Below the pieces are notes generated by a model, which was not told the DNA's origin, did not search any database, and saw nothing but the letters and a program-made list of their open reading frames with translations. The position numbers and the translations under genes are program-made. From an uncultured Verrucomicrobiae bacterium (GTDB taxonomy: Bacteria; Verrucomicrobiota; Verrucomicrobiia; Chthoniobacterales; JAFAMB01): a stretch of 64,000 bases of DNA. The stretch is from contig CAVXLD010000001.1 in assembly GCA_963762565.1 (NCBI GenBank), positions 198,286 to 262,285 of the forward strand. Reading direction: 5' to 3'. Shown one piece after another: positions 3,191 through 63,342 of the stretch; positions within the stretch are counted from its first letter, which is position 1; every line of letters begins with the position of its first letter.

Positions 3191-4276
3191 TCAAAGCGAA
3201 TTCTGAGCCCGGTGCCGTAGCCAGTGATCACAGATCACCAGAATGGCCATTGCTTCGACAATCGGCACTGCCCGAGGAAGAACGCATGGATCATGGCGGC
3301 CGCGGGCAGCCAATTCTACAGGTTCGCCCGCTACGTTCACGGTGGCCTGAGGCTGCAAAATGGTGGCGGTCGGTTTGAATGCGACCCGAAAAACGATGTC
3401 TTCACCGTTGCTAATCCCGCCTTGTATTCCACCAGAATAGTTGGACTTCGTGCGTACCCGACCACCTTGGATTTCAAACGGGTCGTTGTGTTCGGCTCCC
3501 GTCATCCGTGTGCCCGCAAACCCGGATCCAAACTCGATTCCCTTCGCAGCCGGCAGACTCAATAACGCTTTCCCCAGATCTGCCTCCAGCTTGTCAAAAA
3601 CGGGTTCACCCAGTCCGGGCGGAACACCGCGGATGACGCATTCGATGACCCCGCCAACCGAATTCCCTTCTTTCCGCATTGTCTGAATGAGCTCGATCAT
3701 TTTCGCAGCCTTCTCTGGATCCGGACACCTGACGATCGAGCTTTCGACTTGCTGAAGCGTCACCGCGTGTGAGTCGATCTCGGCTTCAAGGGAGTGTATC
3801 TGGCGGACATAAGCGACTATTTCGATCCCCGGGATAGCTTGCGCTAACACTTTTCGGGCCACAGCGGCGGCCGCTACTCGCCCAATGGTTTCACGGGCGG
3901 ATGCTCGGCCACCGCCCTGCCAATTCCGGATCCCGAACTTCGCTTGATAAGTGAAGTCTGCATGAGAAGGCCGATAGGCGGTCTCCATCTCCCGATAAGC
4001 TTCCGGCCGGGCATCCTGGTTGCGGACCATGATAGAAATTGGTGTCCCTAATGTTTTGCCCTCGAATACCCCAGACAAGATCTCACATCGGTCAGCCTCT
4101 TTTCGCTGAGTCACAATCTCGCTTTGACCAGGCCGTCGCCGATCCAACTCCACTTGAATATCCTCTTCTGAGATCGCGATTCTCGGGGGGCACCCATCGA
4201 TTACAACACCGACTCCACCCCCGTGGGACTCACCCCAGGTCATCACCCGAAATAGAACGCCAAACTGAGAAGACAT
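3191..4276 (-). CDS. aroC: Chorismate synthase
   Basis: 361 aa. [35 protein letters not shown]-like and GGISNG motifs. Confidence 0.95.
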
Positions 4277-4330
4277 GTCGCTACGGAGGCCGTGAGCGTA
4301 TATTACCGCTTATCGGGATCAAGTCTATGC

Positions 4331-4532
4331 CGGAGCTGGGAGGCGTAAGTGGACGTAGTGGACGAAGTAGACGTAGTGGACAAAGTGGACCGGGAGTGGA
4401 CGATTTAACTCCTCGCCGCCGAATCTGAGGACGTCCACTCCGTCAACTCAGTCCATTCCGTCCACTCCTGTCTACTCGGCCGCCCATGCCCGGCGCACCC
4501 CTACTAGCTCCTAGATTCCAGCTCCTAGCTCC
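4331..4532. repeat. Nested palindrome of 9-nt arrays in the aroC / lysR divergent region
   Basis: Six GTAGTGGAC-type units (4345-4401) are mirrored by five GTCCACTCC-type units (4433-4477). An outer ggagctgggagg (4332-4343) is mirrored by ctagctcctagattccagctcctagctcc (4504-4532). Confidence 0.85.
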
Positions 4533-8589: not shown

Positions 8590-9651
8590 ATGATTTGGAC
8601 ACCGTTTAACTTCCGAACGACGCTGCTCTACTCAGCGGTCTGGCTCCTCCTGACAGGTACAATGGCGAAGGCAGAACCTCCGAAATTGATATTGCCAACG
8701 GAGAACGACGGCCTTTTGACCGGTAAATTCGCGGAGTTCTATCAATACGTTCAGCGCGATTTCGAGGGCCAAGTCGGCCAGCCGTGGGAGGGCGGCCAGT
8801 ATGGTTTCGTCCGGAACCCAAGACGCATTGGATCGCAGGTCATTTATACGCGATTTCACGAGGGGATCGATATCCGGCCTCTACACCGGGATGCTGCCGG
8901 CGAGCCGGAAGACATCATCCATGCAATCGCCGCCGGAACCGTAGTTTACACAAATCCTGTCGCCAGAAATTCGAACTACGGCCGGTATGTGGTCATCGAA
9001 CATCACCTGGACGGTTTCCCTTATTACAGCCTTTACGCCCATCTGAACACGATCACTGTGAATATTGGCGACTCGGTAGATCAGGGTTCACCGATTGCAG
9101 TGATGGGCCATACCGGCGAGGGGCTCGACAGGGAGCGCGCCCATGTTCATCTGGAGCTAAACCTTCTTTTGAACTCCCATTTTTCAGAATGGTTCCAGGG
9201 ACATCACTCAGCAGACATCGACCGGCACGGTATCTACAATGGGATTAACTTGGCCGGCATCGACATTGGCCGGTTTTATTTGGAGCTCCAAAAGAATCCG
9301 GAGCTTACGGTGCCTACCTTCGTTCAACAGGGAGAACCCTGGTACAGAGTCCTGGTCCCGATATCGCCCCGAATGGATCTGACCGAACGATATCCTTGGC
9401 TGTTAGAAGGCGAAACGGACGCGCCCAGCTGCGAGATCAGTTTCGACCGCACTGGGCTGCCGCTTAAGGTTCGCGGTTCTAGCGAACATGTGACACAGCC
9501 AACGGTATCCTGGGTCCATTCTTCGCCTTTCCCTCAGCATCTGTTGACCAAAGGTTTCATTCGGGACCACGGATCAGGCTACGTTCTCTCAGAGGAGGGA
9601 AACCGGTACATCAGCCTGGTTTGTGACTCGCCTCAGGCTCGCCATCAATAG
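8590..9651 (+). CDS. M23 family metallopeptidase
   Basis: HEGIDIRP, YSLYAHLN, GHTGEG and HVHLELN motifs. N-terminal signal peptide. Confidence 0.85.
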   Translation: MIWTPFNFRTTLLYSAVWLLLTGTMAKAEPPKLILPTENDGLLTGKFAEFYQYVQRDFEGQVGQPWEGGQYGFVRNPRRIGSQVIYTRFHEGIDIRPLHRDAAGEPEDIIHAIAAGTVVYTNPVARNSNYGRYVVIEHHLDGFPYYSLYAHLNTITVNIGDSVDQGSPIAVMGHTGEGLDRERAHVHLELNLLLNSHFSEWFQGHHSADIDRHGIYNGINLAGIDIGRFYLELQKNPELTVPTFVQQGEPWYRVLVPISPRMDLTERYPWLLEGETDAPSCEISFDRTGLPLKVRGSSEHVTQPTVSWVHSSPFPQHLLTKGFIRDHGSGYVLSEEGNRYISLVCDSPQARHQ

Positions 9652-9776
9652 CAGATAGCACTGGAGGGGAGCCGCCTGTTTTCACGTTTTTCGATCGCAG
9701 CTCGGGATCGGCGAAAATGTTGCGCGGTCGCGACGCACGCACCAAAGCGGCTCCCCTCCAGGCTATTGGCTATTTG
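9647..9776. repeat. Family B element, short form (B1) with AATAGCM arrays
   Basis: ggaggggagccgc (9663-9675) pairs with caaagcggctcccctcc (9743-9759). Flanks aatagcagatagca / ggctattggctatttg. Lacks the inner repeat pair. Confidence 0.8.
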
Positions 9777-9841
9777 AGAGCGAGCCTCAGACGAACTCCC
9801 GCCTTGCCCTGCCCTTGAATCCCTTCTAAGAATCTCGGCGC

Positions 9842-10591: not shown

Positions 10592-10625
10592 GGTGGCCGG
10601 TGGGGTAAGGCGCGGGTTGCAATTC

Positions 10626-10747
10626 GGGAGGGCGCGCGTCCCCGCACGCCGCGAGGACGTGCCACAACTGATTGTGTATTTTCGCCGCCATAATTAACAT
10701 ACGCTGGACTTCGGTAACAACGGATCGCGAGGACGCGATCCCTCCCC
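10626..10747. repeat. Family C element, copy C2
   Basis: gggagggcgcgcgtccccgcacgccgcgagg ... ggatcgcgaggacgcgatccctcccc. Same orientation as C1. Confidence 0.85.
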
Positions 10748-14381: not shown

Positions 14382-14420
14382 CTTTGGCGTTTGGCGTGTC
14401 GGCGGACGGGACCGCAATTT

Positions 14421-14701
14421 GGTGGGGCGAGGCTCCCGAACGGAAGATGTACTTTCACAGCGCCCCTCGCTGAACCTCATGAGTTGTCGGCAACACCGAT
14501 GGACCGCCGAGCCGTCGGTCTGCAGCGTTTCAATACCCCGTTAGAATGAAGAACGTGCGTAGCAGATGCTTCAGATGCGCTGATTAGTTGTACGCGCTGG
14601 GACGCGGCTCGGCACGCCAATCGGCGAAACCTCGCGCGCAGTTTCGCAAAATCGAGCCTCTTTGTCGGAGATTTTAGGTCACTCGGGAGCCTCGCCCCAC
14701 C
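14421..14701. repeat. Family A element, copy A1 (281 nt)
   Basis: TIRs ggtggggcgaggctcccgaa (14421-14440) / tcgggagcctcgccccacc (14683-14701). Internal gccgagccg (14506-14514) / cggctcggc (14605-14613). GGCGTTT units on the left flank (14384-14405). Confidence 0.9.
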
Positions 14702-14847
14702 AACGTTGGGCCGCTACACGCGGATGCTCACAGATTCTTCCTCCGCATCCCATGCCGTAACCGACTCAAAATCAAGCAATTGCGTCTATTACGGCGACCC
14801 CCTTGCAGTTTCTGTGCCACTCTCCTACTATTCACTCACGACAACTT

Positions 14848-17019: not shown

Positions 17020-17034
17020 GGGGCCAGAAAAGTT

Positions 17035-17270
17035 GGTGGGGCGAGGCTCCGGAACTACGATTTTGTGTTCACAGGGGAGTTGATGCACTTAACCCAGCGC
17101 TCACAATTTCGATACGCTGCCGAGCCGCTGTTCTGTCGTGTGGCCGGCACCTTATTCCATGGGAGATCAGGGGAATCGGCTCGGCGGTCCTTCCGGCCTA
17201 ACGTTGCGTCCGGCGTCAAATCATCGAGGTCTCCGATATAGCGTCCGGTCTTTCGGGAGCCTCGCCCCAC
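17035..17270. repeat. Family A element, copy A2 (236 nt)
   Basis: TIRs 17035-17054 / 17252-17270. Internal 9-mers 17119-17127 / 17177-17185. Followed by cgtttcgcccattcg units. Confidence 0.9.
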
Positions 17271-17412
17271 TAATGCCCGCCGTTTCGCCCATTCGTTGCG
17301 TTTTGGTGGTTACAGTAATTGTTGCGTTCTTTCCGGTAGAAAAATCGGGAAAAGCAAGATAAAAATATAACGCCATCTCCCGCAGGCGTGTTATCATAAA
17401 GGCGATTGTATC

Positions 17413-19722: not shown

Positions 19723-19947
19723 ATGGTGATTGGTGATTGGTGGGGCGAGGCTCCCGAAAGGCCTTTTAGTCTTATCAAGCGGGTCAGTTCTCACCCGGAG
19801 ATTATGTCCGCTACGCCGATAAACCCGCCGAGCCGTTGGTCCACGCGAACCATGGCTCGGCAGCGTTTCGGCATAGGTCGTATCGTGGTGAGGATCTTCC
19901 CCCTGCCTTGCGATCGTCATCAGGCCTTTCCGGAGCCTCGCCCTACC
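19718..19947. repeat. Family A element, copy A3 with GTGATTG array on the left
   Basis: The array gtgtgaatggtgattggtgattgg contains the mglA stop. TIRs 19739-19758 / 19928-19947. Minimal central hairpin gccgagccgttggt-ccacgcga-accatggctcggc. Confidence 0.9.
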
Positions 19948-19994
19948 AATTACCCGCAGTTGCGCTTCTTGCCACCCTCATATATGTGTCCGAA

Positions 19995-21061: not shown

Positions 21062-21783
21062 AGCCAGCGGCGCGCTCCCTGCAAAATTCCATTTTCGATT
21101 GGGATCGCCCGAGATGGAACGGACGGTTGCTGTGGCTAATTGTGTTTTCTTTAGGCCTACACTTCGCGGGACTTTACGTTTTCCATGTTGTTTACCCGTC
21201 AACCACTTCTCTGCCTCCCCCAGCGGCTCAAGTCTCGGTACTGAATCCACAAAACCCACAGGACCGCCGGCTCCTTGATTGGGTGGACCTAAACGATCCG
21301 TCTGCGATTAGCGCCCCCAAAGTAGACGACAGCCTGGTCGCAAAATTAGTCCCGGGTTATCGTCCGACGTTTAGCGACGAGACCCCTGAAATCCGGAAAA
21401 GCCAGGCCGGCGCCCCAGCCCAGGAGGCGGCTACTCCTTCGCTTTTTACTCCCGACAATCTTTTCCCTAGGCAAGTCAGGCCTGCTTCTGTTCAACGGAA
21501 GACCAGTTTCGCAAGCCACCTTGAGTTCGGGCCCGCCTTGGAAAATAGAAAACCGGCCACACCGGAGAGACTCCCGACCAGCCAGCGGCTCTCAGAACCC
21601 ACGACTTTCTTTGTGGGAATCAATAAGAAAGGCGAAGTAAAATACCTTTTTCTATTGCGAACTTCGGGAAATGATCAGCTGGATCATCTTGCCGAAGAGG
21701 CTGTTAAGCAGCTGAGATTTCAGCCCGATAACACCGAGAGCTGGGACACGGTTTCGCTGCAGTGGGGCAGCGGCGGGAAGTGA
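21058..21783 (+). CDS. TonB-like / hypothetical anchored protein
   Basis: GTGA overlap with exbD. N-terminal TM, Pro-rich linker, and a C-terminal ~70 aa (VKYLFLLRTSGNDQLDHLAEEAVKQLRFQP) compatible with a TonB C-terminal fold. Weak assignment. Confidence 0.45.
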   Translation: MKPAARSLQNSIFDWDRPRWNGRLLWLIVFSLGLHFAGLYVFHVVYPSTTSLPPPAAQVSVLNPQNPQDRRLLDWVDLNDPSAISAPKVDDSLVAKLVPGYRPTFSDETPEIRKSQAGAPAQEAATPSLFTPDNLFPRQVRPASVQRKTSFASHLEFGPALENRKPATPERLPTSQRLSEPTTFFVGINKKGEVKYLFLLRTSGNDQLDHLAEEAVKQLRFQPDNTESWDTVSLQWGSGGK

Positions 21784-21990
21784 TTAGTGATTAGTGATTA
21801 GTGATTGGTGATTGGTGGGGCGCTGGGGCGATGAAAAAACGTGTAACATGGACGCGGACTGGCACTAATACACTTATAAGTCCCGTCTTGTCATAAGCCC
21901 CATCGATATCAGCCGCGCACATCCTTGCTCTAAACGCTTTTCCATCAGCCCAGGCACCCACTAATCACCAATCACTAATCACCAATCACC
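21781..21990. repeat. TGATTAG/TGATTGG array-bracketed element (A-related variant)
   Basis: The left 5 heptamers begin with the TGA stop of the tonB-like gene and are followed by tggggcgctggggcg. Right cccactaatcaccaatcactaatcaccaatcacc. The core lacks the canonical A TIR. Confidence 0.8.
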
Positions 21991-22055
21991 TTCCCTGCCC
22001 TATTGACGCACCCGCCCCTCCGCGGGACGATGTTGGTAGCGGCCACAAACTGTCC

Positions 22056-23532: not shown

Positions 23533-24780
23533 GTGATGAGCGATAGACGTGTTGTAGTCACCGGGTTGGGTGTTATCACACCAATCGGTAATGACCTTAA
23601 AACCTTTTGGGAGAACCTTGTAGCGGGGAAAAACGGGATCCGTAAGATCTCGCATTTCGACGCCTCCATCTTCGACTGTCACATTGCCGGCGAGGTGCCA
23701 GATTTCGATCCCATTACGTATCTGGCTAATCCTAAGGACGTTCGGCGGACCGACCGTTTTTCCCAATTTGCTCTGGCCTGCTCAAAGCGGGCCCTAGAAG
23801 ACAGTGGTCTCGATCTGGAACGCATCGACCGCACTCGGGTCGGCGTCCTGGTCGGCAGTGGGATCGGCGGCTTGAGCACACTGGAGACCCAACATGTGGT
23901 TTTCTTGAAGAAAGGCCCTTCCAGAGTGTCTCCCTTCATGGTGCCAATGATGATCGTGAACATGGCCAGCGGATTAATCGCGATGGAATACGGCTTTGAA
24001 GGCCCGAATTATTCTATCGTGACCGCTTGTGCCACCTCCGCGAACTCCATTGGCGAAGCTTGGAGGATGATTCGCGATGATGAAGCCGAGATTTTCTTGG
24101 CCGGCGGTACCGAGGCGGTCATCAATAATCTTGGCCTCGGCGGCTTCTGTGCGATGCGGGCGATGAGCACGAGAAACGATGAACCGCACCGGGCATCGCG
24201 CCCATTCGATAGGGAACGAGACGGGTTCGTGATGGGTGAAGGCGGTGGAGTCTTAATTCTCGAGGAGTACGAACACGCAAAGGCTCGAGGGGCACGCATC
24301 TACTGCGAACTCGCTGGTTATGGACTTACCTGCGATGCTTACCACATGACCGCGCCCAAACCCGATGGGACGCCGGTAGCGCGAGGGATGCAAATCGCCG
24401 CGAAGCGGGCCGGCGTTAATCCGACGGATATTGATTACATCAACGCTCACGCCACATCGACACAGGTCGGCGATGTTTGCGAAACGAATGCGATTAAACG
24501 GTTCGCCGGTGATTACGCGAAAAATGGTCTTTTGATTAGCTCAACCAAATCGATGATTGGTCATCTGCTCGGCGGCGCTGGAGCAGTAGAAAGCGCGGTC
24601 TGCATCCTTGCCATGCAACATGGTGTGGTGCCGCCCACGATCAATCTCGACAATCCTGACCCTGAGTGCGACCTCGACTACGTCCCAAATGTCGCACGCG
24701 AGAAAAAAGTACGAGTCGCACTTAATAATTCGTTTGGCTTCGGCGGCCACAACGCATCGCTTTGTTTCAAAGCATTGTAG
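23533..24780 (+). CDS. fabF: 3-oxoacyl-ACP synthase II
   Basis: RRVVVTGLGVITPIG, ACATS active-site Cys, HATST and GHLLGGAG motifs. Confidence 0.95.
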   Translation: MMSDRRVVVTGLGVITPIGNDLKTFWENLVAGKNGIRKISHFDASIFDCHIAGEVPDFDPITYLANPKDVRRTDRFSQFALACSKRALEDSGLDLERIDRTRVGVLVGSGIGGLSTLETQHVVFLKKGPSRVSPFMVPMMIVNMASGLIAMEYGFEGPNYSIVTACATSANSIGEAWRMIRDDEAEIFLAGGTEAVINNLGLGGFCAMRAMSTRNDEPHRASRPFDRERDGFVMGEGGGVLILEEYEHAKARGARIYCELAGYGLTCDAYHMTAPKPDGTPVARGMQIAAKRAGVNPTDIDYINAHATSTQVGDVCETNAIKRFAGDYAKNGLLISSTKSMIGHLLGGAGAVESAVCILAMQHGVVPPTINLDNPDPECDLDYVPNVAREKKVRVALNNSFGFGGHNASLCFKAL

Positions 24781-24939
24781 GGGGCGTTTGGCGTTCGGCG
24801 TTCGGCGTTTGGCGTTCGGCGTTCGGCGTTCCTATGATTCGAAATGATTGCAACACTGCGGATCTGTCGTGGCTCGTGAGCAAGCGACGCGCGTTATTGA
24901 AGCGCCGAACGCCAAACGGTGAACGCCGAACGCCAAACG
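24781..24939. repeat. Array-bracketed element G1 (GGCGTTY arrays)
   Basis: Seven GGCGTTY units (24781-24830) start 1 nt after the fabF stop. A 71-nt core follows. The inverted array gcgccgaacgccaaacggtgaacgccgaacgccaaacg is at 24902-24939. Confidence 0.85.
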
Positions 24940-25800
24940 AGTAAGTACGTCGTTCTTCTGCTCCTGACCGCATTGTTTTGGTCGTTGGGAGGAGTCCTCA
25001 TCAAGTCCATCGATTGGAATCCTGTCGCCATTGCGGGTTCGCGAAGCTTGATCGCCGTCTTCCTAATCGCCATCCTGCGACCGTCCGCCGTCCGTAAATT
25101 TTCCTGGACCGCATTCTTCGGCGGAATCGCCTACATGGTGACAGTTGTGTTGTTCGTGATTGCAACCAAGCTGACAACCGCTGCCAATGCCATTTTTCTC
25201 CAGTACACGGCTCCGATTTATATCGCTCTGATAAGCCCATGGCTTTTGAAGGAACGTGTTCGTCGACTGGACTGGATTCTGATCGGTCTTGCTTTCGGCG
25301 GAATTGCTCTCTTTTTCTGCGACCGGCTCTCCTTTGCCGGAATTTGGGGAGTAATGGCCGCACTTGTCAGCGGCTTCTCCTACGCGTGGCTTACGATGCT
25401 GTTGCGTCGCCAAAAATCGGCATCCCCCGAAGCCACGGTGTTCATAGGCAACTTGATGACTGTGTTAGTGGCGGCTCCGGCGATGTGGCCGCCGGTGAAC
25501 CTGGGCCATAATTGGCCTTGGCTGCTTGCCTTGGGCGTCCTCCAGCTCACGATTCCCTATTTGCTTTATACACAGGCTATCCGGCATGTGCGTGCGCTGG
25601 ATGCATCTATAATCAGCATGATCGAGCCGATCCTTAATCCGATCTGGGTCATGTTTGCCGTGGGCGAACATCCCGCCAGATGGGCAATCGTCGGAGGATG
25701 CATGGTCCTGGGAACCTCTTTGCTACGGAGTATCTTCGCCTCGCGCGAGCCCGAATCCGAATTCGCCTTAGGCTCATCCGGAATGACAAATGACAGATGA
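24919..25800 (+). CDS. DMT (EamA) family transporter
   Basis: About 10 TM helices in two EamA-like halves. The start is uncertain because the first codons lie in the GGCGTTY-type array. The stop and last ~13 codons lie in element F1. Confidence 0.75.
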   Translation: MNAERQTSKYVVLLLLTALFWSLGGVLIKSIDWNPVAIAGSRSLIAVFLIAILRPSAVRKFSWTAFFGGIAYMVTVVLFVIATKLTTAANAIFLQYTAPIYIALISPWLLKERVRRLDWILIGLAFGGIALFFCDRLSFAGIWGVMAALVSGFSYAWLTMLLRRQKSASPEATVFIGNLMTVLVAAPAMWPPVNLGHNWPWLLALGVLQLTIPYLLYTQAIRHVRALDASIISMIEPILNPIWVMFAVGEHPARWAIVGGCMVLGTSLLRSIFASREPESEFALGSSGMTNDR

Positions 25801-25902
25801 AAAATGACAGATTGGGAAATCCTTCGGTCACACGCGTTCTATTTCGGACATTTGTCATCTGTCATTTGTCATTTGTCATTCGAAACGAGCCTCAGGCGAG
25901 TT
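25760..25902. repeat. Family F element, copy F1 (143 nt)
   Basis: aattcgccttaggctcatccggaATGACAAATGACAGATGAAAAATGACAG, core attgggaaatccttcggtcacacgcgttctatttcggac, then the inverted TGTCATY array and cgaaacgagcctcaggcgagtt. Confidence 0.9.
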
Positions 25903-26329: not shown

Positions 26330-26343
26330 GATGTGACCTCCGG

Positions 26344-26486
26344 ACTCGCCTTAGGCTCGTCCGCAATGACAAATGACAAATAACAGATGACAGATTGGGA
26401 ATTCCTTCGGTCACACGCATTTCTATTTCGGAGATTTGTCATTTGTAATTTGTCATCTGCCATTCCGAACGAGCCTCAGGCGAGTT
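26344..26486. repeat. Family F element, copy F2 (143 nt)
   Basis: Same layout as F1. Core attgggaattccttcggtcacacgcatttctatttcggag. The right end ccgaacgagcctcaggcgagtt supplies the stop of the ABC ATPase gene. Confidence 0.9.
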
Positions 26487-27243: not shown

Positions 27244-27377
27244 GGCTCCTTCAAGATGACAATGACAGATGACAGATGACAAATGTCCGAAATAGACCGC
27301 GCGTGACCGAAGGATCTCCCAATCTGTCATCTGTCATTTGTCATTCCGAACGAGCCTCAGGCGAGTTCGGCTGATAG
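27244..27377. repeat. Family F element, copy F3 (core inverted relative to F1/F2)
   Basis: aactcgctgaggctccttcaagATGACAATGACAGATGACAGATGACAA, core atgtccgaaatagaccgcgcgtgaccgaaggatctcccaatc, then TGTCATCTGTCATTTGTCATtccgaacgagcctcaggcgagtt. Confidence 0.9.
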
Positions 27378-28230: not shown

Positions 28231-28524
28231 TTGTGTCCTGTCCCATAAGTAACATGGCTTTCGCCGTCGGCCAGTTGGCTGTTTTTCAAGGCGCGAGCGA
28301 AGCGCCCATATCTGGTTCATACGGGTCGAGCGAGCAACGCGGAAAAACAGCCAACTGGCCACGGCCCGGAGGGTTGCGATGAAAATGGGCCGGCGGCTGC
28401 GTTGCTCGTCGGTTACGTATCGATCAAGATATGCGCCCTCTACCGCCAGTCCGGCTCGGACCGCCTTGCCGGCGGCCCATTTTGATCGCAACGAAAGCCA
28501 TGTTACTTATGGGACAGGACACTA
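28231..28524. mobile_element. Family D MITE-like element, copy D1 (294 nt)
   Basis: About 33-nt TIRs: tgtgtcctgtcccataagtaacatggctttcg / cgaaagccatgttacttatgggacaggacacta. It fills the gap between the SBP stop (28522-28524) and the permease start (28216). About 96% identical to D2. Confidence 0.9.
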
Positions 28525-29649
28525 GTTGGCAGTCGCGATCCGATCCGCAAACGAGGGATCGAGCAATTCATTCACGATCCTGTCCACGTCGGTGTTGGGA
28601 TCGATGATTCCGTTCGCTTTCAAGGCGTTGGCGGAATCCAGAATAACCTGGCGCTGAGTCGCTCCGAGCCGCGAATCCTTCAGGTTGGTCCTTTCCCACA
28701 CCTTCTCCGCAACGGCCGGGCTTAATTGAGCCGCTGACTGTAGGATGGTACGCGCTTCGTCCGAATGATCCAGGCACCACAGGCGGGCTTTCTCATAAGT
28801 TCGGAGAACGCGCTCAGTAATATCCGGATGCTCGAAAGCGAAAGCTTCCCGTACGTTCAATACCCCGAAACTGTTCCAATCCGCTCGGCGAAAAAACAGC
28901 TTAAATCCCTTGTCGACCTCTAGCTGTGCCATGTACGGATCCAGCCCGGCCCAAGCATCGACCTGCCCCCGTTCCAACGCGACTTTGCCGTCGGGATGCT
29001 GCAAAGGTACAACCTGGATATCCTTTTCGCTCAACCCAGCGGAGGCGAGTGACCGCAAAAGAAAAATATGAGGATCAGTTCCGCGAGTCACGGCCACGCG
29101 TTTGCCACGCAGATCTTCGATCCGCGTTATTCCGGAGCTTGGGCTTGTTACCAGCGCGGTCCATTCGGGCGCAGAATAAACGTAAATCGCTTTGATTGGG
29201 TTGCCGTTTGCTCGCCCGATAAATGCCGCCGCTCCCGCGGTTGAGCCGAAGTCGACACTTTTGCCCCTTAGATACTCCAGCGCTTTGTTACTACCCAGGC
29301 TCTGCACCCACTCCACCTTGATGCCGCTTGAGCCCAGATCCTCCTCTAGCCATTTCTTGTCCTTGAGCACCAGGCTAATCGGATTGTAGTACGCCCAATC
29401 GACTCGAACGGTGTCGACGCTTCCGGCCTTGGAAAATTCGCCAAACCAGAGCGACCCAAACAAACACATAAGGGACAAAATCGAGCTCAGGCGACCTCGC
29501 CTCGGTGATGGCTTAGTTGTGTCACCGTACGCGCGAGGGGGATTGTACCTCGGGCTGCCATGCCTGGAAGATCGAAGTCGGACGGAAAGAATACTGTGCT
29601 GATAGGGTTTCACCCTCCCCATCTCTAGATGTAATCCGCCCGAACGCAA
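28522..29649 (-). CDS. ABC transporter substrate-binding protein, NMT1/SsuA-like
   Basis: Periplasmic-binding-protein pattern (VRVDWAYYNPISLVLK..., AVTRGTDPHIFLL). The start codon is uncertain, with several in-frame ATGs between 29469 and 29649. Confidence 0.8.
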   Translation of the reverse strand: MRSGGLHLEMGRVKPYQHSILSVRLRSSRHGSPRYNPPRAYGDTTKPSPRRGRLSSILSLMCLFGSLWFGEFSKAGSVDTVRVDWAYYNPISLVLKDKKWLEEDLGSSGIKVEWVQSLGSNKALEYLRGKSVDFGSTAGAAAFIGRANGNPIKAIYVYSAPEWTALVTSPSSGITRIEDLRGKRVAVTRGTDPHIFLLRSLASAGLSEKDIQVVPLQHPDGKVALERGQVDAWAGLDPYMAQLEVDKGFKLFFRRADWNSFGVLNVREAFAFEHPDITERVLRTYEKARLWCLDHSDEARTILQSAAQLSPAVAEKVWERTNLKDSRLGATQRQVILDSANALKANGIIDPNTDVDRIVNELLDPSFADRIATAN

Positions 29650-29688
29650 GCCGTTTCGCGCCTAGCGCAGGCGAGCCGGTCACGACTT

Positions 29689-29892
29689 GGAGGGGAGCCG
29701 CTTTGGAATTTTGCGGATCCGTAAGTTGGCAGCAAGCGGCTCCCGGGAACGGTCCAGGGCTGGGCAGCTCTGTGACGGCTTCAAATCGATGCTTGCAACC
29801 GGGTTCTTCCGCCGTGCCTCACATTGGGTAATTCCCGGGAGCCGCTTGCTACCAACCTACAGATCTGCCACGCTACAAAGCGGCTCCCCTCC
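29689..29892. repeat. Family B element, copy B2 (204 nt, double nested inverted repeats)
   Basis: Outer ggaggggagccgctttg (29689-29705) / caaagcggctcccctcc (29876-29892). Inner ttggcagcaagcggctcccgggaa (29726-29749) / ttcccgggagccgcttgctaccaa (29832-29855). Confidence 0.9.
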
Positions 29893-30018
29893 AGTCCTTG
29901 GGCGTGCGACGCCACCGGGCTGATTGCGATGACGAGAACGAAGATGATCGCGCCACAGTGATCACTCACTCCTTGCAAGCCCAGCAGCTCCAGGCCACGG
30001 TTTGGCAGACCTAAAGTT

Positions 30019-31053
30019 ATGATGAACTATCGTTTACTCGGTCGGAGCGGGCTGCGAGTTTCGGAGCTCTGCTTAGGAACCATGACCTTCGGGGAAGATT
30101 GGGGTTGGGGAGCTCCCAAGGATGAAGCACGGAAAATCTACGACGCGTTTCGCGAAGCCGGCGGCAATTTTATCGATACGGCTAACGTTTATACGCAGGG
30201 TTCGAGCGAAACCTTTCTCGGCGAGTTCTTTTCGGAACACCGTGATAGCGTGGTTCTCGCCACGAAATACACCAATGCGCTAACCACCAATGACCCGAAT
30301 GCCGGGGGAAACCAGCGCAAGAATATGATGCAAGCCGTTGAAGGCAGTTTGCGTCGCCTGAAAACCGATTACATCGACCTCTATTGGCTTCATATCTGGG
30401 ATCAAATGACGCCAGTTGAAGAAGTGATGCGCGCCTTCGATGACCTGGTTCGCCAAGGTAAAGTCCTTTATGTCGGCGTTTCCGATGCACCTGCCTGGTG
30501 GATCAGTAAAGCGAATACGATCGCTGAGCTCCGTGGATGGTCGCCCTTCGTCGGTCTGCAGATTGAGTATTCACTGATCGAACGTACGGTCGAACGGGAG
30601 CTGATTCCGGCAGCGAAACATCTTGGGCTCACGGTCACCGCCTGGTCACCTTTAGCGGGTGGCGTTCTCACCGGCAAATATGCGTCAGGCGAAGCCACCG
30701 ACTCCCGTTATTCTACCGAAATGATGAAACAATGGTTACCAGAGCAAACTCGGACTGCTCGCATCGTTGAGGCTCTTCAGAATGTCAGTAAACAGACCGG
30801 ACGGAGTAAAGCCCAGATCGCATTGGCTTGGCTGCGACATCGCGCCGTCCCGGTTATCCCTATTGTGGGCGCCCGCAAACTGACTCAGCTTGAAGACAAC
30901 ATCGCCAGTCTGACACTCACTCTCACTCCGGACCAACTGGCCTTATTGGATGAGGCCAGTCAGATCGAGCTCGGTTTCCCGTACCACTTCTACGCTAACG
31001 AGATGGTCCGCACGTTCGTGTACGGCGGTGTAAGGGACCACATAATCACGTGA
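30019..31053 (+). CDS. Aldo/keto reductase
   Basis: YRLLGRSGLRVSELCLGTMTFG, IDTANVY and LYWLH motifs. Confidence 0.9.
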   Translation: MMNYRLLGRSGLRVSELCLGTMTFGEDWGWGAPKDEARKIYDAFREAGGNFIDTANVYTQGSSETFLGEFFSEHRDSVVLATKYTNALTTNDPNAGGNQRKNMMQAVEGSLRRLKTDYIDLYWLHIWDQMTPVEEVMRAFDDLVRQGKVLYVGVSDAPAWWISKANTIAELRGWSPFVGLQIEYSLIERTVERELIPAAKHLGLTVTAWSPLAGGVLTGKYASGEATDSRYSTEMMKQWLPEQTRTARIVEALQNVSKQTGRSKAQIALAWLRHRAVPVIPIVGARKLTQLEDNIASLTLTLTPDQLALLDEASQIELGFPYHFYANEMVRTFVYGGVRDHIIT

Positions 31054-31345
31054 TTAGTGATTAGTGATTGGCGATGGCGCTGGTCGGGCGAGGCTCCCGA
31101 AAGAACTAAAGTCTCTAACGAAGATCCAGACGTTTCGGCCTGAAAGAGTTTGTTAGGCCGATCGGTGTGCCGAGCCGTGGTTCCGCGCGTAACCCGGCTC
31201 GGCGCGTTGCTAGAAGTAGCATGCCTTCTTAATTCGGAATGCGAAGGGAGATGGAAAATCACAGAGTCTTTCGGGAGCCTCGCCCTACCAACGGCGTCTC
31301 ATCCACCATCACCTCTCACCAATCACCAATCACTTCTCACCTTCT
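31051..31345. repeat. Family A element, copy A5 with inverted TGATTAG-type arrays
   Basis: The array starts on the aldo/keto reductase TGA stop. TIRs 31082-31101 / 31270-31289. Central hairpin gccgagccgtggtt-ccgcgcgt-aacccggctcggc. Right array atcaccaatcaccaatcact (to ~31345). Confidence 0.9.
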
Positions 31346-33564: not shown

Positions 33565-33858
33565 TAGTGTGCTGTCCCATAAATAACATGGCTTTCGCCG
33601 TCGGTCAGTTGGCTGTTTTTCAAGGCGCGAGCGAAGCGCCCATATCTGGTTCATACGGGTCGAGCGAGCAACGCGGAAAAACAGCCAACTGGCCTCGGCC
33701 CGGAGGGTTGCGATGAAAATGGGCCGGCGGCTGCGTTGCTCGTCGGTTACGTATCGATCTAGATATGCGCCCCTTACCGCCAGTCCGGCTCGGACCGCCT
33801 TACCGGCGGCCCATTTTGATCACAACGAAAGCCATGTTATTTATGGGACAGCACACTA
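33565..33858. mobile_element. Family D MITE-like element, copy D2 (294 nt)
   Basis: TIRs tagtgtgctgtcccataaataacatggctttcg / cgaaagccatgttatttatgggacagcacacta. About a dozen substitutions versus D1 and no indels. Confidence 0.9.
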
Positions 33859-33865
33859 GGAGCGC

Positions 33866-36053: not shown

Positions 36054-36055
36054 AT

Positions 36056-36182
36056 GTGGAGCGCTGCCTCGCTTGCGAGGCCGTGGTGAGCAGGGCAAGA
36101 TGCTGTGTCATACGCCATTTTTTCGATGCTAGGTGACGTCGCCCTGCTTACCAACGGCCTCGCAAGCGAGGCAGCGCTCCAC
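36056..36182. repeat. Family E element, copy E1 (127 nt)
   Basis: About 40-nt TIRs: gtggagcgctgcctcgcttgcgaggccgtggtgagcagggc / gccctgcttaccaacggcctcgcaagcgaggcagcgctccac. Each TIR holds the self-complementary CCTCGCTTGCGAGG. Confidence 0.9.
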
Positions 36183-38767: not shown

Positions 38768-38817
38768 CCATGGAAGACATCCCCCAACCTGCCTTTGGCC
38801 GACGCAATTCGGACCCG

Positions 38818-39022
38818 GAGGGGAGCCGCTTTATCGTTAGGCAGCTCTGTAATTCGGCAGCAAGCGGCTCCCGAGAACGGCCCCGGATGATGCAGGTCTA
38901 TTGGGCAGCCATATCGACCAGCTTGGAACAGAGCCGCTGGGCAAATATTTACGCTGGGTTATTCCCGGGAGCCGCCTGCTGCCAACTGATAGGACTGCCA
39001 CACTACAAAGCGGCTCCCCTCC
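38818..39022. repeat. Family B element, copy B3 (205 nt)
   Basis: Outer repeats 38818-38834 / 39006-39022. Inner repeats 38853-38877 / 38962-38985. The right flank ctgggcatgcgacgcc resembles the B2 flank. Confidence 0.9.
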
Positions 39023-39068
39023 AGGCGCTGGGCATGCGACGCCGTGTTCTTAGAAGCACGAAGCGCAC

Positions 39069-39710
39069 ATGAGATCAGCACTCATTCTCTGGGGCGGTTG
39101 GGACGGTCACGAGCCGGAGCGGTGCGCGGAAATCGTTCAAGGGATGCTGACCGATGACGGGTTTCAGGTGAGCAAGGAGGCCGACCTGCAAGTCTTGGTT
39201 GAGGCAAACCCAGGCAGGTTCAACTTGATCGTACCGATCATTTCGATGGGATCGATCACAGATGCTCAGTGTAAAGCTCTGACCTCAGCCGTGGAAGCAG
39301 GAACGGGCCTGGCTGGCTTTCACGGCGGTATGGGCGATAGCTTCCGTAACCATACCCACTATCAATTCATGACTGGCGGTCAGTTTGTTGCGCATCCCGG
39401 CAACATCATCAATTACCGGGTGAATATTGTGGATCATTCCGATCCAATCACAGCCGGCCTGGATGATTTCGATTACCGTTCAGAGCAATATTACATGCAT
39501 GTGGATCCGAATAATCACGTGCTCGCTACCACTACTTTTTCTGGCGAACACGCTTTCTGGGTTGCAGGGGCGACAATACCAGTGGTCTGGAAACGACAGC
39601 ACGGGCATGGAAAAGTGTTTTTCAGTTCATTAGGCCACGCAGCGTCTGAGTTTGCCGTGAAAGAGATGAGAACAATCTTGCAACGCGGGATGGTTTGGGC
39701 AGCCAGGTGA
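39069..39710 (+). CDS. ThuA domain-containing protein
   Basis: 213 aa. ALILWGGWDGHEP, GFHGGMGDSF and GQFVAHPG patterns are typical of the ThuA (trehalose-utilisation) family. Confidence 0.75.
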   Translation: MRSALILWGGWDGHEPERCAEIVQGMLTDDGFQVSKEADLQVLVEANPGRFNLIVPIISMGSITDAQCKALTSAVEAGTGLAGFHGGMGDSFRNHTHYQFMTGGQFVAHPGNIINYRVNIVDHSDPITAGLDDFDYRSEQYYMHVDPNNHVLATTTFSGEHAFWVAGATIPVVWKRQHGHGKVFFSSLGHAASEFAVKEMRTILQRGMVWAAR

Positions 39711-39774: not shown

Positions 39775-39897
39775 GGGAGGGATTCGCGTCCTCGCGATCC
39801 GACGCGATCGAAGCCCTGCGCGGCTGGCGGACGAGGGGTTGAATGTATCTTTAGTTCTTGGAACGTCTTTACGGCGCGCGGGGACGCGCGCCCTCCC
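39775..39897. repeat. Family C element, copy C3 (inverted orientation)
   Basis: gggagggattcgcgtcctcgcgatcc ... cggcgcgcggggacgcgcgccctccc is the reverse complement of the C1/C2 layout. Confidence 0.85.
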
Positions 39898-39966
39898 GGG
39901 CGGCGGAGCCCTTCTCTCGCCGCGAGATGTATACGCAAGCGAGCGAGTGCGAGATCCCGGTTCACA

Positions 39967-46607: not shown

Positions 46608-46648
46608 GTAAGAGCGGAACGTAACACAGCATTACAAATAACCAAGCT

Positions 46649-46894
46649 GGTGGGGCGAGGCTCCGGAATAACCTGAAATGGCAAACGGAGAACTCGATTT
46701 AGTCTAAACCGAGATCGCGCTTCGCCAATGGGCGCGCCGAGCCGATCCCAGCGTGTGGCAGCCGACGATCGGTCAGGGGGGGTGGAACATGCTGGGACCG
46801 GCTCGGCGCGTTTAGCGGCATCGCCCACGATAGATTGGCAAACATTGACGTCCTCCGCTCGAGCAAAGCGGCCGTTCGGGAGCCTCGCCCCACC
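46649..46894. repeat. Family A element, copy A6 (246 nt)
   Basis: TIRs 46649-46668 / 46875-46894. Internal 9-mers 46736-46744 / 46799-46807. Confidence 0.9.
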
Positions 46895-46902
46895 AACGCC
46901 TC

Positions 46903-47328: not shown

Positions 47329-47340
47329 TCCATTTAATTT

Positions 47341-47422
47341 CACCACAGAGAGACAGAGGACACAAAAGCCAAAATTCGGTTTCCCTTAGGATGACCTTTG
47401 TGTCCCCTGTCTCTCTGTGGTG
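47341..47422. repeat. 26-bp-stem hairpin downstream of clpX
   Basis: caccacagagagacagaggacacaaa (47341-47366) pairs with tttgtgtcccctgtctctctgtggtg (47397-47422), with one mismatch and a 30-nt loop. Confidence 0.85.
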
Positions 47423-47425
47423 AAA

Positions 47426-48694
47426 TTAAGCGGCGTCCTTGTCCTGCTTCCTGCGAATTAGAGGAGCTCGTTTGCCCTCAACCACGGCCCGATTGATCAC
47501 CACGTCAGCGATGTCTTCCCGGCTCGGAACGTCGTACATAACGTCGAGCATGATTTTTTCGAACATGGAACGAAGCGCACGCGCCCCAGTTCCTTTGGTG
47601 GCCGCCTGTTGGGCCAACGCCCGGAGAGCGTCCTTAGTAACCACCAAGTTCACTCCCTCCATCGCCAATAGTTTGGTGTACTGCTTCACCATCGCGTTCC
47701 GCGTGTCGGTCAATATCAGGATTAACTCTTCCTCGGTTAAGGTATCCAGCGCCGTCACAATCGGTAACCGGCCGATGAACTCCGGTATCATCCCGAAGGA
47801 GAGCAGATCTTCGGGTTCGGTATGCCGCAAGGTATCACGCAACTGGAGGTCTGAGGAACTGATTTGAGGCGAATGAAAACCGAGTACTCGGTTCCCTAAC
47901 CGTCGATTAATCAGCCGGTCTAACCCCACAAAGGCTCCGCCGCAGATAAACAAAATCTTTTCCGTGTTAACCTGGATATACTCCTGGTGAGGATGCTTTC
48001 GTCCACCTTGAGGCGGGACATTGCAGCTGCTTCCTTCCAAAATCTTCAGAAGCGCCTGCTGGACGCCCTCACCGGAAACATCGCGGGTAATACTGACGTT
48101 ATCGGTTTTACGGCCGATCTTATCTATTTCATCGATATAAACGATTCCAATCTCGGCTCGTTTAACGTCGTAGTCAGCATTCTGCAGGAGCCGCAAGATG
48201 ATATTCTCGACGTCTTCCCCAACGTAACCGGCCTCGGTCAACGTCGTAGCATCAGCGATACAAAACGGCACATCCAGAATTCGGGCTAGTGTCCTGGCCA
48301 GGAGCGTCTTTCCGCACCCAGTTGGCCCGATCATCAAAATATTGCTCTTTTCAATCTCGACGTCAGCGTATGGATCGAGGGATAGATCCTTGGTCGGGTT
48401 GGCGTTCAGAATCCGCTTGTAATGGTTGTGGACGGCCACGGAAAGGACCTTCTTGGCCGAATCCTGCCCAATCACATGCTGATCGAGTTCGCGCCTGATC
48501 TCGACTGGCTTCGGCACACGCAGCGTTGTGGTCTGCCGTCGGGCGTCCTCGTTTAGCTCTTTATCGAGGATGCCTTTACAAACGTTGATACAATTATCGC
48601 AGATGTAGACACCCGGCCCGGCGATCAATTTGCGAACCTCTGCGTGGCTCTTTCCGCAGAAAGAACACATCGTCAGATTAGAGGCCCGGGCCAT
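47426..48694 (-). CDS. clpX: ATP-dependent Clp protease ATP-binding subunit ClpX
   Basis: N-terminal zinc ribbon CSFCGK...CDNC, Walker A GPTGCGKT, and the IGFG-like loop region. Confidence 0.97.
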
Positions 48695-53727: not shown

Positions 53728-53886
53728 GAAACGAGCGAGAACGAGCGGAAACGAACGAGAAAGTTCGGAAGCGAGGATTGGCGGGGCGAGGCTCCCGCAG
53801 GACCCTGCGCGACGCCAGGGTTTAAGGCAATTCGATTCCGGATGTAATGTTAGGCCGAAACAAGCGCCGAGCCGCTCGTTTCTCCT
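53728..53886. repeat. Family A half element A7 (left half only) with GAACGAG arrays
   Basis: gaaacgagcgagaacgagcggaaacgaacgagaaag array, TIR ggcggggcgaggctcccgca (53780-53799), a 66-nt arm, gccgagccg (53866-53874), then immediately ctcgtttctc. Confidence 0.75.
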
Positions 53887-54883: not shown

Positions 54884-55200
54884 AGTAAGCGGTAAGCAGT
54901 AAGCAGTGGTCAGTACTACGAGCTAAAATCCAGGAGCTAGGAGGGCCGACGGCTGTGGAGCGTGCCTCGCTTGCGAGTCCGTGGTGAGCAAGGCTCATTA
55001 CGTGACATCCCCATCGTCGGCGTACGCTCTTTTGTCTGAAGAGGCAAACCTTGCGATACAGAGCGCTGACCGACATAGGGCATGTGTCGTGGTTCACCCT
55101 TGCTCTCCAACGGCCTCGCAAGCGAGGCACGCTCCACGGCCGTCGCCCCTCCTAGCTCCTAAATTCTAGCTCCTAGCTCCTAAACTGCTTACTGCTTACT
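54884..55200. repeat. Family E element, copy E2, with two nested layers of inverted arrays
   Basis: AGTAAGC units then AGCTAGGAG units on the left. TIRs 54955-54993 / 55098-55137. CTCCTAGCT units then GCTTACT units on the right. Confidence 0.9.
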
Positions 55201-57037: not shown

Positions 57038-57046
57038 CCTCGGATT

Positions 57047-57194
57047 GGTGAGCGAGGCTCCGGCACGACAAAATGCATTGCCAAACCCAGCGATAGGCCC
57101 GGCTCGGCGAGCTGTGCAGCGTTGCACCGGTCAAGTAGGGGCAGCATAGCGGCTTTGCGAAAATCGATCGGTCGTTCGGGAGCCTCGCCCTACC
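57047..57194. repeat. Family A half element A8 (left TIR joined to right half)
   Basis: ggtgagcgaggctccggca (57047-57065), only cggctcggc (57100-57108), a 66-nt right arm, and TIR ttcgggagcctcgccctacc (57175-57194). Confidence 0.75.
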
Positions 57195-57243
57195 ACGCTC
57201 GTTGACGGCGTCGTGTTGCCATGCATACCTGACCCTTCGTCCT

Positions 57244-58233
57244 ATGCATCAAAAGCTGCGGCCATCCCATCATGTTTCGGCGACAGCAGGGTTAACGCTC
57301 GCGTGCCTTTTTTGGGGGCTCAGTTTTCCGGCCAGCAAAGCATTGACGTTCCTCTATCTGAAAGCGATCCCGGCAGAATCGAGTTGGTTCGTAGTCGGCT
57401 TACAAGGAGCCCTGCGTTTCGGTATCGCCGGCCTGATCATGGTTCTGCTCAGTTGGCGAGAACTGTCGTCGTTGAACAGGCGCGAGCTAGGTCAAGGACT
57501 CTGGCTCGGGCTATTTGGAGGAACCGGCTTGATCTTTCAAATCGATGGCTTGGCATATACTCCTGCCTCAACTTCGTCTTTCCTCACCCAGACTTATTGT
57601 ATTTTGGTCCCGCTTTACCATGCCGTCGCCGCTCGACGTCTCCCGCGACCAGTGCAACTGCTGGCCACGGCCGGCGTGGTCGCTGGCATCGTCGTCCTGA
57701 GCAAGATCGACTGGGGCCATTTCCGGATGGGCCGCGGCGAGCTTGAAACCTTAATTAGTACGTTATTTTTCACCGGCCAGATTCTGGTGTTAGACTCCGC
57801 CCAGTACTTCCAGAACCGGACGAAGGTGGTTTCCTCGATAATGTTCCTGACCACCGGACTGGTTTTTACTCTGGTCCTTATTCTATCAAACCATTCTTTC
57901 AGCAGTTACCAAGCAGCCGCTCGCGTAGAAGGACAATTCTACCTCCTGGCGATTTTGATCTTCTTTTGCACTCTATTGGCTTTCAACCTGATGAATCGCT
58001 GCCAAAAATATATCCCGGCGAGTGAGGCGGCTTTGATTTACACCATGGAACCGGTTTCCACTTCTGTGTTCGCGACCTTCCTACCCGCCTGGCTATCCCA
58101 TCTGGTTGGTATTCGGTATGAGAACGAACAAGTCTCAGTAAGCCTGCTGATTGGGGGTGGCCTGATTCTAGCCGCTAATTTAGTGATGCAAATCTGGGGG
58201 CATACTCGCATCGCCCACGCTGGAGAAACTTGA
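57244..58233 (+). CDS. DMT (EamA-like) family transporter
   Basis: About 10 TM helices. ATG at 57244 preferred. Confidence 0.7.
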   Translation: MHQKLRPSHHVSATAGLTLACLFWGLSFPASKALTFLYLKAIPAESSWFVVGLQGALRFGIAGLIMVLLSWRELSSLNRRELGQGLWLGLFGGTGLIFQIDGLAYTPASTSSFLTQTYCILVPLYHAVAARRLPRPVQLLATAGVVAGIVVLSKIDWGHFRMGRGELETLISTLFFTGQILVLDSAQYFQNRTKVVSSIMFLTTGLVFTLVLILSNHSFSSYQAAARVEGQFYLLAILIFFCTLLAFNLMNRCQKYIPASEAALIYTMEPVSTSVFATFLPAWLSHLVGIRYENEQVSVSLLIGGGLILAANLVMQIWGHTRIAHAGET

Positions 58234-58264
58234 CAGCCCGGTCCAGCCGAATCCAAACTGCACT

Positions 58265-61026: not shown

Positions 61027-61035
61027 AGGGTTTTT

Positions 61036-61317: not shown

Positions 61318-61370
61318 CCCCTCGCAGAGTCCTAGCTAACCAGGACGATTCTGCTACCATAGCCGCATCA

Positions 61371-63335: not shown

Positions 63336-63342
63336 GGCGCCG

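Follow-up and report, generated by a model that had tools for sequence, protein, structure and literature searches.

The intergenic DNA of an uncultured verrucomicrobial bacterium (Chthoniobacterales; contig CAVXLD010000001.1 of assembly GCA_963762565.1) carries a palindromic repeat, here called family B, that is probably a non-coding, non-autonomous element of the same general kind as miniature inverted-repeat transposable elements (MITEs), REPINs (inverted pairs of repetitive extragenic palindromic, or REP, sequences) and bacterial interspersed mosaic elements (BIMEs). The window, by which we mean the whole 64,000-nucleotide stretch that was analysed, contains three long copies, at 29689-29892 (204 nt), 38817-39022 (206 nt) and 63125-63335 (211 nt), and one short form, at 9663-9759. 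Copies built on a strict four-box plan are dispersed in the window and in the assemblies JAFAZK, JAFAHI, JAFAIO, JAFAVN and DASUWQ; they are missing at the orthologous sites of relatives and are lost by internal deletion. The truncated, single-arm and tandem copies that accompany them are typical of decaying mobile repeats. Family B is neither a conserved regulatory site nor an RNA gene, because it is gained and lost between related genomes in the manner of a miniature mobile element.

A full element consists of two inverted arms about a centre of ~90 nt. The arm unit has the consensus GGAGGGGAGCCGCyTk, spacer, mArGCGGCTCCCGnGAA, the distance separating its two 9-nt cores being ~34 nt in the short type and ~70 nt in the long type; the family B arm runs CGCCT-GGAGGGGAGCCGCTTTG, ~20 nt, TTGGCAGCArGCGGCTCCCGGGAA. 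The window has 14 occurrences of the 9-mer core GGGAGCCGC where 1.01 are expected (none of 100 shuffles gets to 14), and every one of these cores falls within the four family B elements. The exact 13-mer GGAGGGGAGCCGC is found eight times, as four inverted pairs (9663/9759, 29689/29892, 38817/39022 and 63125/63335), and the whole-arm pattern (outer box, N15-40, inner box) has six matches where shuffled sequence leads one to expect none. A covariance-model search of the window, as proposed in the preliminary description of this DNA and run with a model built from 11 arms, retrieved exactly these six arms, with E values between 3e-22 and 2e-18, and no other strong match. The outer and inner box pairs sharing a core, which that description had set out, are as it described them but for minor differences: in the 38817 copy the left outer box has TTTA at its end, and in that copy and the one at 63125 the inner boxes are 1-5 positions off the consensus that it proposed. 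Its four stretches are real as well, with two starting points, 38818 and 63126, each off by one.

Other parts of the first picture have had to be redrawn. The ~20 nt between outer and inner boxes had been considered variable, but all six arms align there to a consensus, TAAnnTGGCAGCTCTATCGGTnGGCAGC, and the spacers are homologous. The short form had been taken for an outer pair only; it is in fact one stand-alone arm of the long type, its reverse complement aligning with the long arms of L051 and L076 (L numbers denote fetched loci of related genomes and assemblies, ~1.5 Mb in total). The inverted AATAGCM units reported around it are there as heptamers on both sides (Table 1). The repeat also goes ~21 nt past the right outer box, with TGGGCrTGCGACGCC at 29899-29913 and 39029-39043, and the ends of the centre are roughly inverted once more (GGGAACGTCTG... 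or GGGAATTACCCAGCG); the centre of the 63125 copy is inverted relative to those of the other two long copies. The 17-nt outer boxes make terminal inverted repeats, the arms as a whole (62-64 nt) being 80-85% complementary, and the long copies contain only spurious open reading frames (ORFs) and give no Pfam hits. They are 204-211 nt in length, as against 281-329 nt, outer box to outer box, for copies in the assemblies. Pairwise identity among the window copies is 65-85%. Elsewhere, single arms stand at L088, L114 and L046, and L094 has a tandem, partly fused pair of elements.

The left and right arms pair over their whole length, forming a ~75-bp hairpin on either strand with folding energies of -139 and -147 kcal/mol (z = -10.7 and -11.3) for the two strands; folded as DNA the value is -74 kcal/mol (z = -9.9). 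Since the outer and inner boxes within one arm are mutual reverse complements (GGGAGCCGCTT / AAGCGGCTCCC), a single arm is itself a hairpin, and the element could alternatively take the form of a cruciform of two arm hairpins. So strong a fold, in an element three of whose four window copies have co-directional genes on either side and would thus be transcribed, brings to mind a structured RNA: a cis-acting signal for processing, stability or termination, or else a small RNA gene. We consider this very unlikely. Both strands fold, and it is the antisense strand, relative to the flanking genes, that folds better in all three long copies. When 14 full copies are folded to a consensus, the box columns that pair do not vary and RNAalifold gives a covariation term of -0.1 kcal/mol; double changes are seen at 10 of 44 pairs, mostly at subfamily level. 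Spacer complementarity within elements is 0.68, as against 0.67 between elements, for short arms (0.60 and 0.58 for long arms), and no copy-specific compensation between the arms of a copy was found. A consensus promoter scan detected nothing inside the elements, none of the three long copies has, within it or beside it, a sequence resembling an intrinsic terminator (a GC-rich hairpin with a T tract behind it), neither context nor strand is conserved, and Rfam 15 gave no hits in the window at the gathering threshold (at E <= 5 only spurious microRNA-hairpin hits elsewhere in it). Close relatives are without copies at orthologous sites, and one of them, L263, lacks the core with no other change. 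The folding data do not support a selected RNA structure; they fit decay from a palindromic founder sequence. An inserted copy would be mostly neutral, and although a transcribed one would form the ~75-bp hairpin and could affect mRNA processing, nothing indicates selection for such an effect.

Comparison of orthologous sites shows all three long window copies to be lineage-specific among relatives at 83-94% protein identity. The 38817 copy lies between co-directional genes for a GFO/IDH/MocA oxidoreductase and ThuA in a sugar-transport operon. Relatives whose ThuA is 83-87% identical (L120, L125, L126, L127-129, L264-266) have these genes overlapping by ATGA or 1-2 nt apart; in the window the gap is 301 nt. 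The empty site reads ...TGAA|ATGGAGAAATCAGC and the window ...TGACC ATGGAAGA CATCC...(291 nt)...GCGCAC ATGAGA TCAGC, with ATGGAAGA at 38770-38777 and ATGAGA at 39069-39074. The old thuA start region is found on both sides of the insert, its right copy being the present thuA start codon, and ATGGAAGA / ATG(GAA)AGA could represent a degenerate 6-8-bp target duplication. A family B copy is tolerated even where the operon genes around it are translationally coupled. L263, the closest relative at this locus, differs from the window by a single clean gap of 216 nt (38821-39036) and keeps both outer parts of the insert at ~90% identity. Since CCTGGA from the outer box is still there, and so is GCGACGCC from the right-hand extension, which the 29689 copy has as well, L263 more likely lost this DNA by internal deletion than the window gained it by insertion. 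A further rearranged remnant is found in L122. The sequence CATCCCCCAAyCTGCC was considered as the repeated outer terminus of a larger mobile unit and dismissed, since it is unique to one locus.

The 63125 copy, between a gene for a dynamin-like GTPase and cdsA, is present in four of four near-identical strains of the window genome (European Nucleotide Archive assemblies; GCA_049577925.1). Among 59 related loci around the GTPase gene, none of the junction-spanning ones from relatives at 89-94% identity has a family B element; L132, whose contig ends ...GAGGGGAGCC, may be an exception. Each lineage has instead its own, different long palindrome, ending just before the same conserved cdsA leader. 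At the 29689 site the genes for an NMT1-type binding protein (SBP) and an aldo/keto reductase are divergent neighbours in relatives too. Between the flanks CGTTTyGCs and CCTTGCAAGC, however, L261 has 33 nt, L260 an unrelated palindrome of ~440 nt and L262 some other sequence. The preliminary description had noted the position of one copy in this divergent promoter region, which is right for the 29689 copy (the 38817 copy is the one between co-directional operon genes), but the placement would seem to be no sign of regulation: in relatives this gene pair is kept with other DNA between its members, and a search for promoter-like sites detected none. The reciprocal case is a site, downstream of the gene at 57202-58233, at which the window is empty (Table 1): L140 has the left arm and centre there, and L135/136 the right arm only. 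The gene itself is without 17 C-terminal codons that the orthologues in L074, L135, L140 and L170 have. Since these shared codons are missing along with the element, the arrangement is consistent with loss of both in one deletion in the window lineage. Family B appears to come and go over times comparable to those in which species diverge.

The window copies, 9-24 kb apart, are set among housekeeping and other ordinary chromosomal genes (gatB, aroC, rpoN, fabF, clpX, tig, tsaD, ispD, ABC transporters and others), and their immediate contexts are dissimilar: a divergent promoter region, the interior of an operon, the 3' end of a gene. The window has four copies in 64 kb; in relatives the density is about one per 80 kb. 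A distribution scan with the outer box covered one genome per species, and what follows refers to the matches listed. These are mostly single chance matches in many phyla. Full four-box pairs were seen solely in Verrucomicrobiota (JAFAZK, JAFAHI, JAFAIO and the Chthoniobacterales assembly DASUWQ), with one degenerate copy in JAFAVN, and paired boxes were not found among the matches listed from other phyla. At least five assemblies of Verrucomicrobiota/Chthoniobacterales have the same architecture on many of their contigs, as do related metagenome loci, so that family B is not confined to this one region of the genome; such confinement would have told against the preliminary description. The arms in these assemblies are longer, with cores 80 nt apart as against 43 and an outer-to-outer span of 270-286 nt (281 nt in L074); the short arm type is found in them too. 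The hits that recur in Streptomyces, where the cores are 1300 nt apart within uvrA, were set aside as chance matches. Viral contigs gave 70 single box hits and no paired cores, and there is therefore no link to phage. The ThuA and aldo/keto reductase proteins encoded beside the copies have homologues that their sources assign to Chthoniobacterales or Verrucomicrobia. A literature search on the box sequences and on repeats in Verrucomicrobia, Chthoniobacter and Udaeobacter turned up no account of family B, the only repeats reported being GTAG-type REPs in Opitutus terrae. From this distribution, family B would be specific to Chthoniobacterales-like Verrucomicrobiota, which are soil organisms.

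What might move such an element is suggested by its boxes. The four boxes are near-invariant across 14 full copies drawn from at least five assemblies, and the spacers have drifted to 55-70% identity; the boxes are most likely what a mobilising enzyme recognises. We propose spread at the DNA level by an enzyme supplied in trans that would recognise GGGAGCCGC boxes. Such an enzyme could be HUH/RAYT-like, working on hairpins that are extruded or single-stranded, or DDE-like, working on terminal repeats in double-stranded form. The same conservation could also mean that the boxes are binding sites of a host DNA-binding protein, nucleoid-associated, architectural or regulatory, the four-site array being kept for a chromosomal function. 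(Binding of integration host factor or gyrase has been proposed for some BIMEs.) The box is common to family A, discussed below, and GGGAGCC is far denser in intergenic than in coding DNA, as this explanation would have it. Yet the copies are not kept at orthologous sites, their contexts are unrelated, and invariance of the boxes is equally expected if only elements with intact boxes propagate, and from the method of detection; with no candidate protein to hand either, we hold a host-protein function to be unlikely.

Family A is a second nested inverted repeat of the window, with outer boxes TTGGTGGGGCGAGGCTCCCGAA and inner boxes GCCGAGCCG / CGGCTCGGC. The preliminary description had suggested that the two families are relatives, and they do look related. 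They have in common a box made up of TTGG, N8 and GGCTCCCG, followed by AA in family A and GGAA in family B: the terminal box of A, TTGG-TGGGGCGA-GGCTCCCG-AA, and the inner box of B, TTGG-CAGCAAGC-GGCTCCCG-GGAA, agree at 16 of 22 positions with the same spacing. Both families have GAGCCG inside a second, inner inverted pair, and in both the inner boxes are accompanied, on the side that faces the centre, by a CCCAGCG module, which takes the form (A/T)TTACCCAGCG in the 29689 copy of B and in one A copy and is shorter or farther off in others. The two are plausibly homologous or share a recognition system, and family A would be served by the same or a related enzyme; a common factor recognising both is putative. 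The heptamer GGGAGCC occurs 29 times in the window as against 11.1 expected, at 0.07/kb in coding and 2.59/kb in intergenic DNA (37-fold), or 1.31/kb (19-fold) in intergenic DNA outside family B, but this enrichment arises from the repeat copies and is not independent evidence. A tRNA-derived origin of the family A termini, ...CCCCACCA, was also entertained and rejected, as a scan for tRNA and tmRNA found none.

Several observations weigh against a transposed, non-autonomous repeat. A Pfam search of the window revealed no transposase, RAYT or integrase, and E. coli RayT had no phmmer hit at E <= 10 among 7478 ORFs of the ~1.5 Mb of relatives' loci, although these are a small fraction of any one genome, in which a single-copy gene is easily missed; neither search produced a candidate for a factor common to families A and B. 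In the fetched loci no pair of outer boxes 0.5-3 kb apart encloses an ORF as an autonomous element would. The target duplication is only suggestive, being too degenerate, and the 38817 locus alone gave a candidate, the other copies having no clean empty site. The repeated unit is without sharp ends, and the outermost ~40 nt at that locus are unique. The copies are not similar enough for a recent burst. Families swap between the same flanks at several sites, which could reflect recombination or gene conversion instead of transposition. Finally, the invariance of the boxes is partly an effect of ascertainment, since copies were found by exact box matches.

A further question is whether the palindromes are transposed at all. 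They might grow and exchange in place, with template switching on hairpins extending stems into flanking DNA and recombination or gene conversion spreading the cores. On the two sides of the GTPase gene, at positions orthologous to 63093-63471 (downstream) and 61027-61370 (upstream), lineages at 89-94% protein identity among loci L130-L188 have unrelated long palindromes, all ending at the same conserved leader sequences. In a clade at 74% identity (L142, L143, L145, L146) the last 31 nt of the GTPase coding sequence are repeated, inverted, just before cdsA as the outer arm of a palindrome, inside which L145 and L146 have an additional layer made of AATAGCC heptamers. It would seem from this that palindromes grow from the centre and copy local flanks. 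In some family B copies of the assemblies the flanks beyond the outer boxes differ from copy to copy and yet pair within the copy (17 of 24 positions in L051, 19 of 24 in L084; permutation p ~0.02). Older outer layers persist where cores differ (the CGCCCnTT octamers beside the 63125 copy are such an older layer, as they are common to relatives without B), and the tandem elements of L094 are joined at a common GCCGCCTGG. Read together, these cases suggest that older palindromes may take in new cores or have their cores exchanged, and that stems may extend into local sequence. As the whole explanation, growth in place is nevertheless decidedly unlikely: the three long copies of the window show no excess flank complementarity, identical 17-24-nt boxes spread over many contigs and several genomes need a dispersal step, and the insertion between abutting operon genes had no prior hairpin from which to grow.

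One might go further and place families A and B and the other palindromes of the clade under one hairpin-directed system not described before, in which an enzyme recognising GGGAGCC-type boxes on extruded hairpins would, time and again, insert, replace and delete palindromic cores at fixed intergenic sites. The result would be layered, onion-like palindromes, whose outer layers would be copied from local flanks and inverted 7-8-nt tandem arrays. We see this as improbable; if it were true, intergenic DNA would here turn over in a novel way, not by ordinary MITE transposition, and these genomes would be a natural system for the creation, movement and purging of palindromic DNA.

The closest comparison is with REP/REPIN elements, which are mobilised by RAYTs (REP-associated tyrosine transposases, HUH enzymes of the Y1 type; PMC3733652). 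Like them, family B has a palindromic unit that is found singly and in inverted pairs, the pairs making a longer hairpin, and it is extragenic, dispersed and clade-specific, with related families in one genome. In contrast to the 20-40-nt REP unit, B arms are 57 or ~95 nt long, with an 11-bp closing stem and a 30-70-nt loop, and the full element is 205-290 nt. In place of the GTAG/CGTC tag family B has GGAG; it is family A and a 'family F', the latter found only in relatives, that start with GGTAGGGCGA / GGTGGGGCGA, much like the GTAG tag, and carry GGTAG/GGTGG (GGTAGGGCGAAAAA... in family F). No RAYT gene was found (a weak test, as explained), and copy density is modest.

Family B shares with the BIMEs of enterobacteria, and with the RIME (rhizobium-specific intergenic mosaic element) and Sm repeats of rhizobia, a plan of conserved boxes and variable linkers, a mixture of short and long arm types, chimeric and partial forms and intergenic locations that include operons. 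It differs in having no sequence similarity to them, four boxes per element in strictly alternating orientation, and a host of another phylum. Bacterial MITEs such as Correia elements (Neisseria), ERIC (enterobacterial repetitive intergenic consensus), Nezha and RUP are likewise non-coding, 100-300 bp long and bounded by terminal inverted repeats; they vary in presence between relatives, insert by or into genes with the creation of new start or stop codons, and form hairpins as RNA. Family B has most of these marks of a MITE (dispersed multiple copies and variable occupation of orthologous sites included) but neither a clear target duplication nor a known autonomous partner, such as a matching insertion sequence, and it has a second, internal pair of the terminal motif and fuzzy ends. 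The attC sites of integrons, which recombine as a folded single strand, also have two nested inverted pairs (R''-L''...L'-R') around a variable centre. Here the resemblance is one of architecture only: the core sites RYYYAAC / GTTRRRY are absent, B ends in GGAGGGG / CCCCTCC, and there is no cassette array and no integrase nearby. The foldback (FB) transposons of eukaryotes have long inverted arms made up partly of short tandem repeats, and several palindromes of the window and of its relatives have inverted 7-8-nt arrays on their flanks, but FB elements are eukaryotic and far larger, and no mechanistic link is apparent.

Family B is an undescribed repeat of MITE/REPIN-like type for an abundant group of uncultured soil Verrucomicrobiota. 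Its recognition should be of use in masking and annotation, in avoiding false calls of regulatory motifs or small RNAs, and in explaining contig breaks (the contig of one relative stops inside the repeat). The 38817 locus shows cleanly that translationally coupled operon genes can tolerate a 0.3-kb palindrome between them, with replacement of a start codon. Most striking is the rapid turnover of unrelated palindromes at fixed intergenic sites: nearly every longer site that was compared has a long palindrome that differs from one related lineage to the next. In the stretch that is syntenic with L074, for example, three further intergenic sites differ, two of them in having different families and one in having a family A element only in L074.

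Table 1. Positions, in the window, of family B copies and their parts, of adjoining features, of family A and of inverted tandem arrays
Feature	Positions	Sequence or remarks
29689 copy, left outer box	29689-29705	GGAGGGGAGCCGCTTTG; box/pattern matches
29689 copy, left inner box	29726-29749	TTGGCAGCAAGCGGCTCCCGGGAA; box/pattern matches
29689 copy, centre	29750-29831	ends GGGAACGG... and ...TGGGTAATTCCC; diverged, still alignable with other copies
29689 copy, right inner box	29832-29855	TTCCCGGGAGCCGCTTGCTACCAA; box/pattern matches
29689 copy, right outer box	29876-29892	CAAAGCGGCTCCCCTCC; box match
29689 copy, right-hand extension	29893-29913	AGTCCTTGGGCGTGCGACGCC; common to 38817 copy
38817 copy, core	38817-39022	outer boxes 38817-38833, 39006-39022; inner boxes 38854-38877, 38962-38985
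38817 copy, right-hand extension	39023-39043	AGGCGCTGGGCATGCGACGCC
Extra DNA between GFO/IDH/MocA gene and thuA, lacking in relatives	38778-39068	291 nt; B core in middle
63125 copy	63125-63335	outer boxes 63125-63141, 63319-63335; inner boxes 63163-63186, 63275-63298
Tandem octamers CGCCCnTT adjoining 63125 copy	63337-63412	also in B-less relatives L138, L139
Short form, stand-alone long-type arm	9663-9759	GGAGGGGAGCCGC, 71 nt, GCGGCTCCCCTCC
Short form, left flank	9642-9662	heptamers AATAGCA, GATAGCA; inverted relative to 9760-9777
Short form, right flank	9760-9777	AGGCTATTGGCTATTTGA; inverted AATAGCC units
Empty family B site	58234-58264	full B in L074, L170; partial in L140, L135/136
Family A, full copies (approximate)	14417-14708, 17031-17278, 19735-19954, 31078-31296, 46645-46901, 61032-61324	
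Family A, partial copies	768-796, 53776-53874, 57046-57201	
Inverted tandem arrays	21775-21994, 24776-24939, 25757-25902, 26340-26486, 27299-27370, 31050-31078 with 31302-31344, 63337-63412	

The window is rich in other palindromes: 15 of its 40 intergenic gaps of at least 70 nt fold with z < -4. A 293-nt palindromic element with terminal inverted repeats of ~30 nt (GTCCTGTCCCATAAGTAACATGGCTTTCG) is present at 28233-28525 and again at 33567-33859; this pair looks like a MITE of another family, and its 96% identity suggests recent activity of such elements. Inverted tandem arrays of 7-8-nt units (GTGATTG, GGCGTTC, ATGACAA, AATAGCA, CGCCCnTT) flank many palindromes or form their arms, and the units AATAGCC, GTGATTG and GGCGTTC recur in relatives. 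A palindrome family beginning GTGGAGCGyTGCCTCGCTTGCGAG... is represented at 54916-55176 and 36054-36180, the former copy being flanked by GTAAGCr heptamers in the gap with the strongest fold of the window (z = -18.7), and another inverted-repeat family, GGGAGGGmkyGCGyGTCCyCGC..., at 39775-39898, downstream of thuA, and at 10625-10747. The spacer from thuA to the permease gene ranges from 115 to 462 nt among relatives. The palindromes at the GTPase sites include 'family F' (outer box GGTAGGGCGAAAAAyTCGGCGCGCC), a GGGATGACAGGACTCAGCC... family and hairpins of ATGGGAC, AGTGGAC or CTCCTAG heptamers. Permissive Rfam hits to models of eukaryotic microRNA precursors, all below gathering scores, fall at 47330-47433, 26361-26468, 27253-27345 and 4356-4458; on bacterial intergenic hairpins these are false positives that arise from long perfect hairpins.

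Near the 29689 copy, a block of ~70 nt (ATACTGTGCTGATAGGGTTTCACCC...TGTAATCCGCCCGAACGCAAGCCGTTT, 29589-29660) upstream of or at the start of the NMT1/THI5-like gene is conserved in L260-L262, where the spacer is not; it has no Rfam match and is possibly a leader or regulatory element. L262 also has two full short-type family B elements side by side (3571-3802 and 4102-4317 of that locus), downstream of the aldo/keto reductase gene, and the matching position of the window is occupied by a family A element. The segment 40001-44000, which codes for two ABC permeases and several proteins without Pfam matches, stands apart from the remainder of the window in its AT skew, which is strongly negative in both of its successive 2-kb bins (-0.27 and -0.28).

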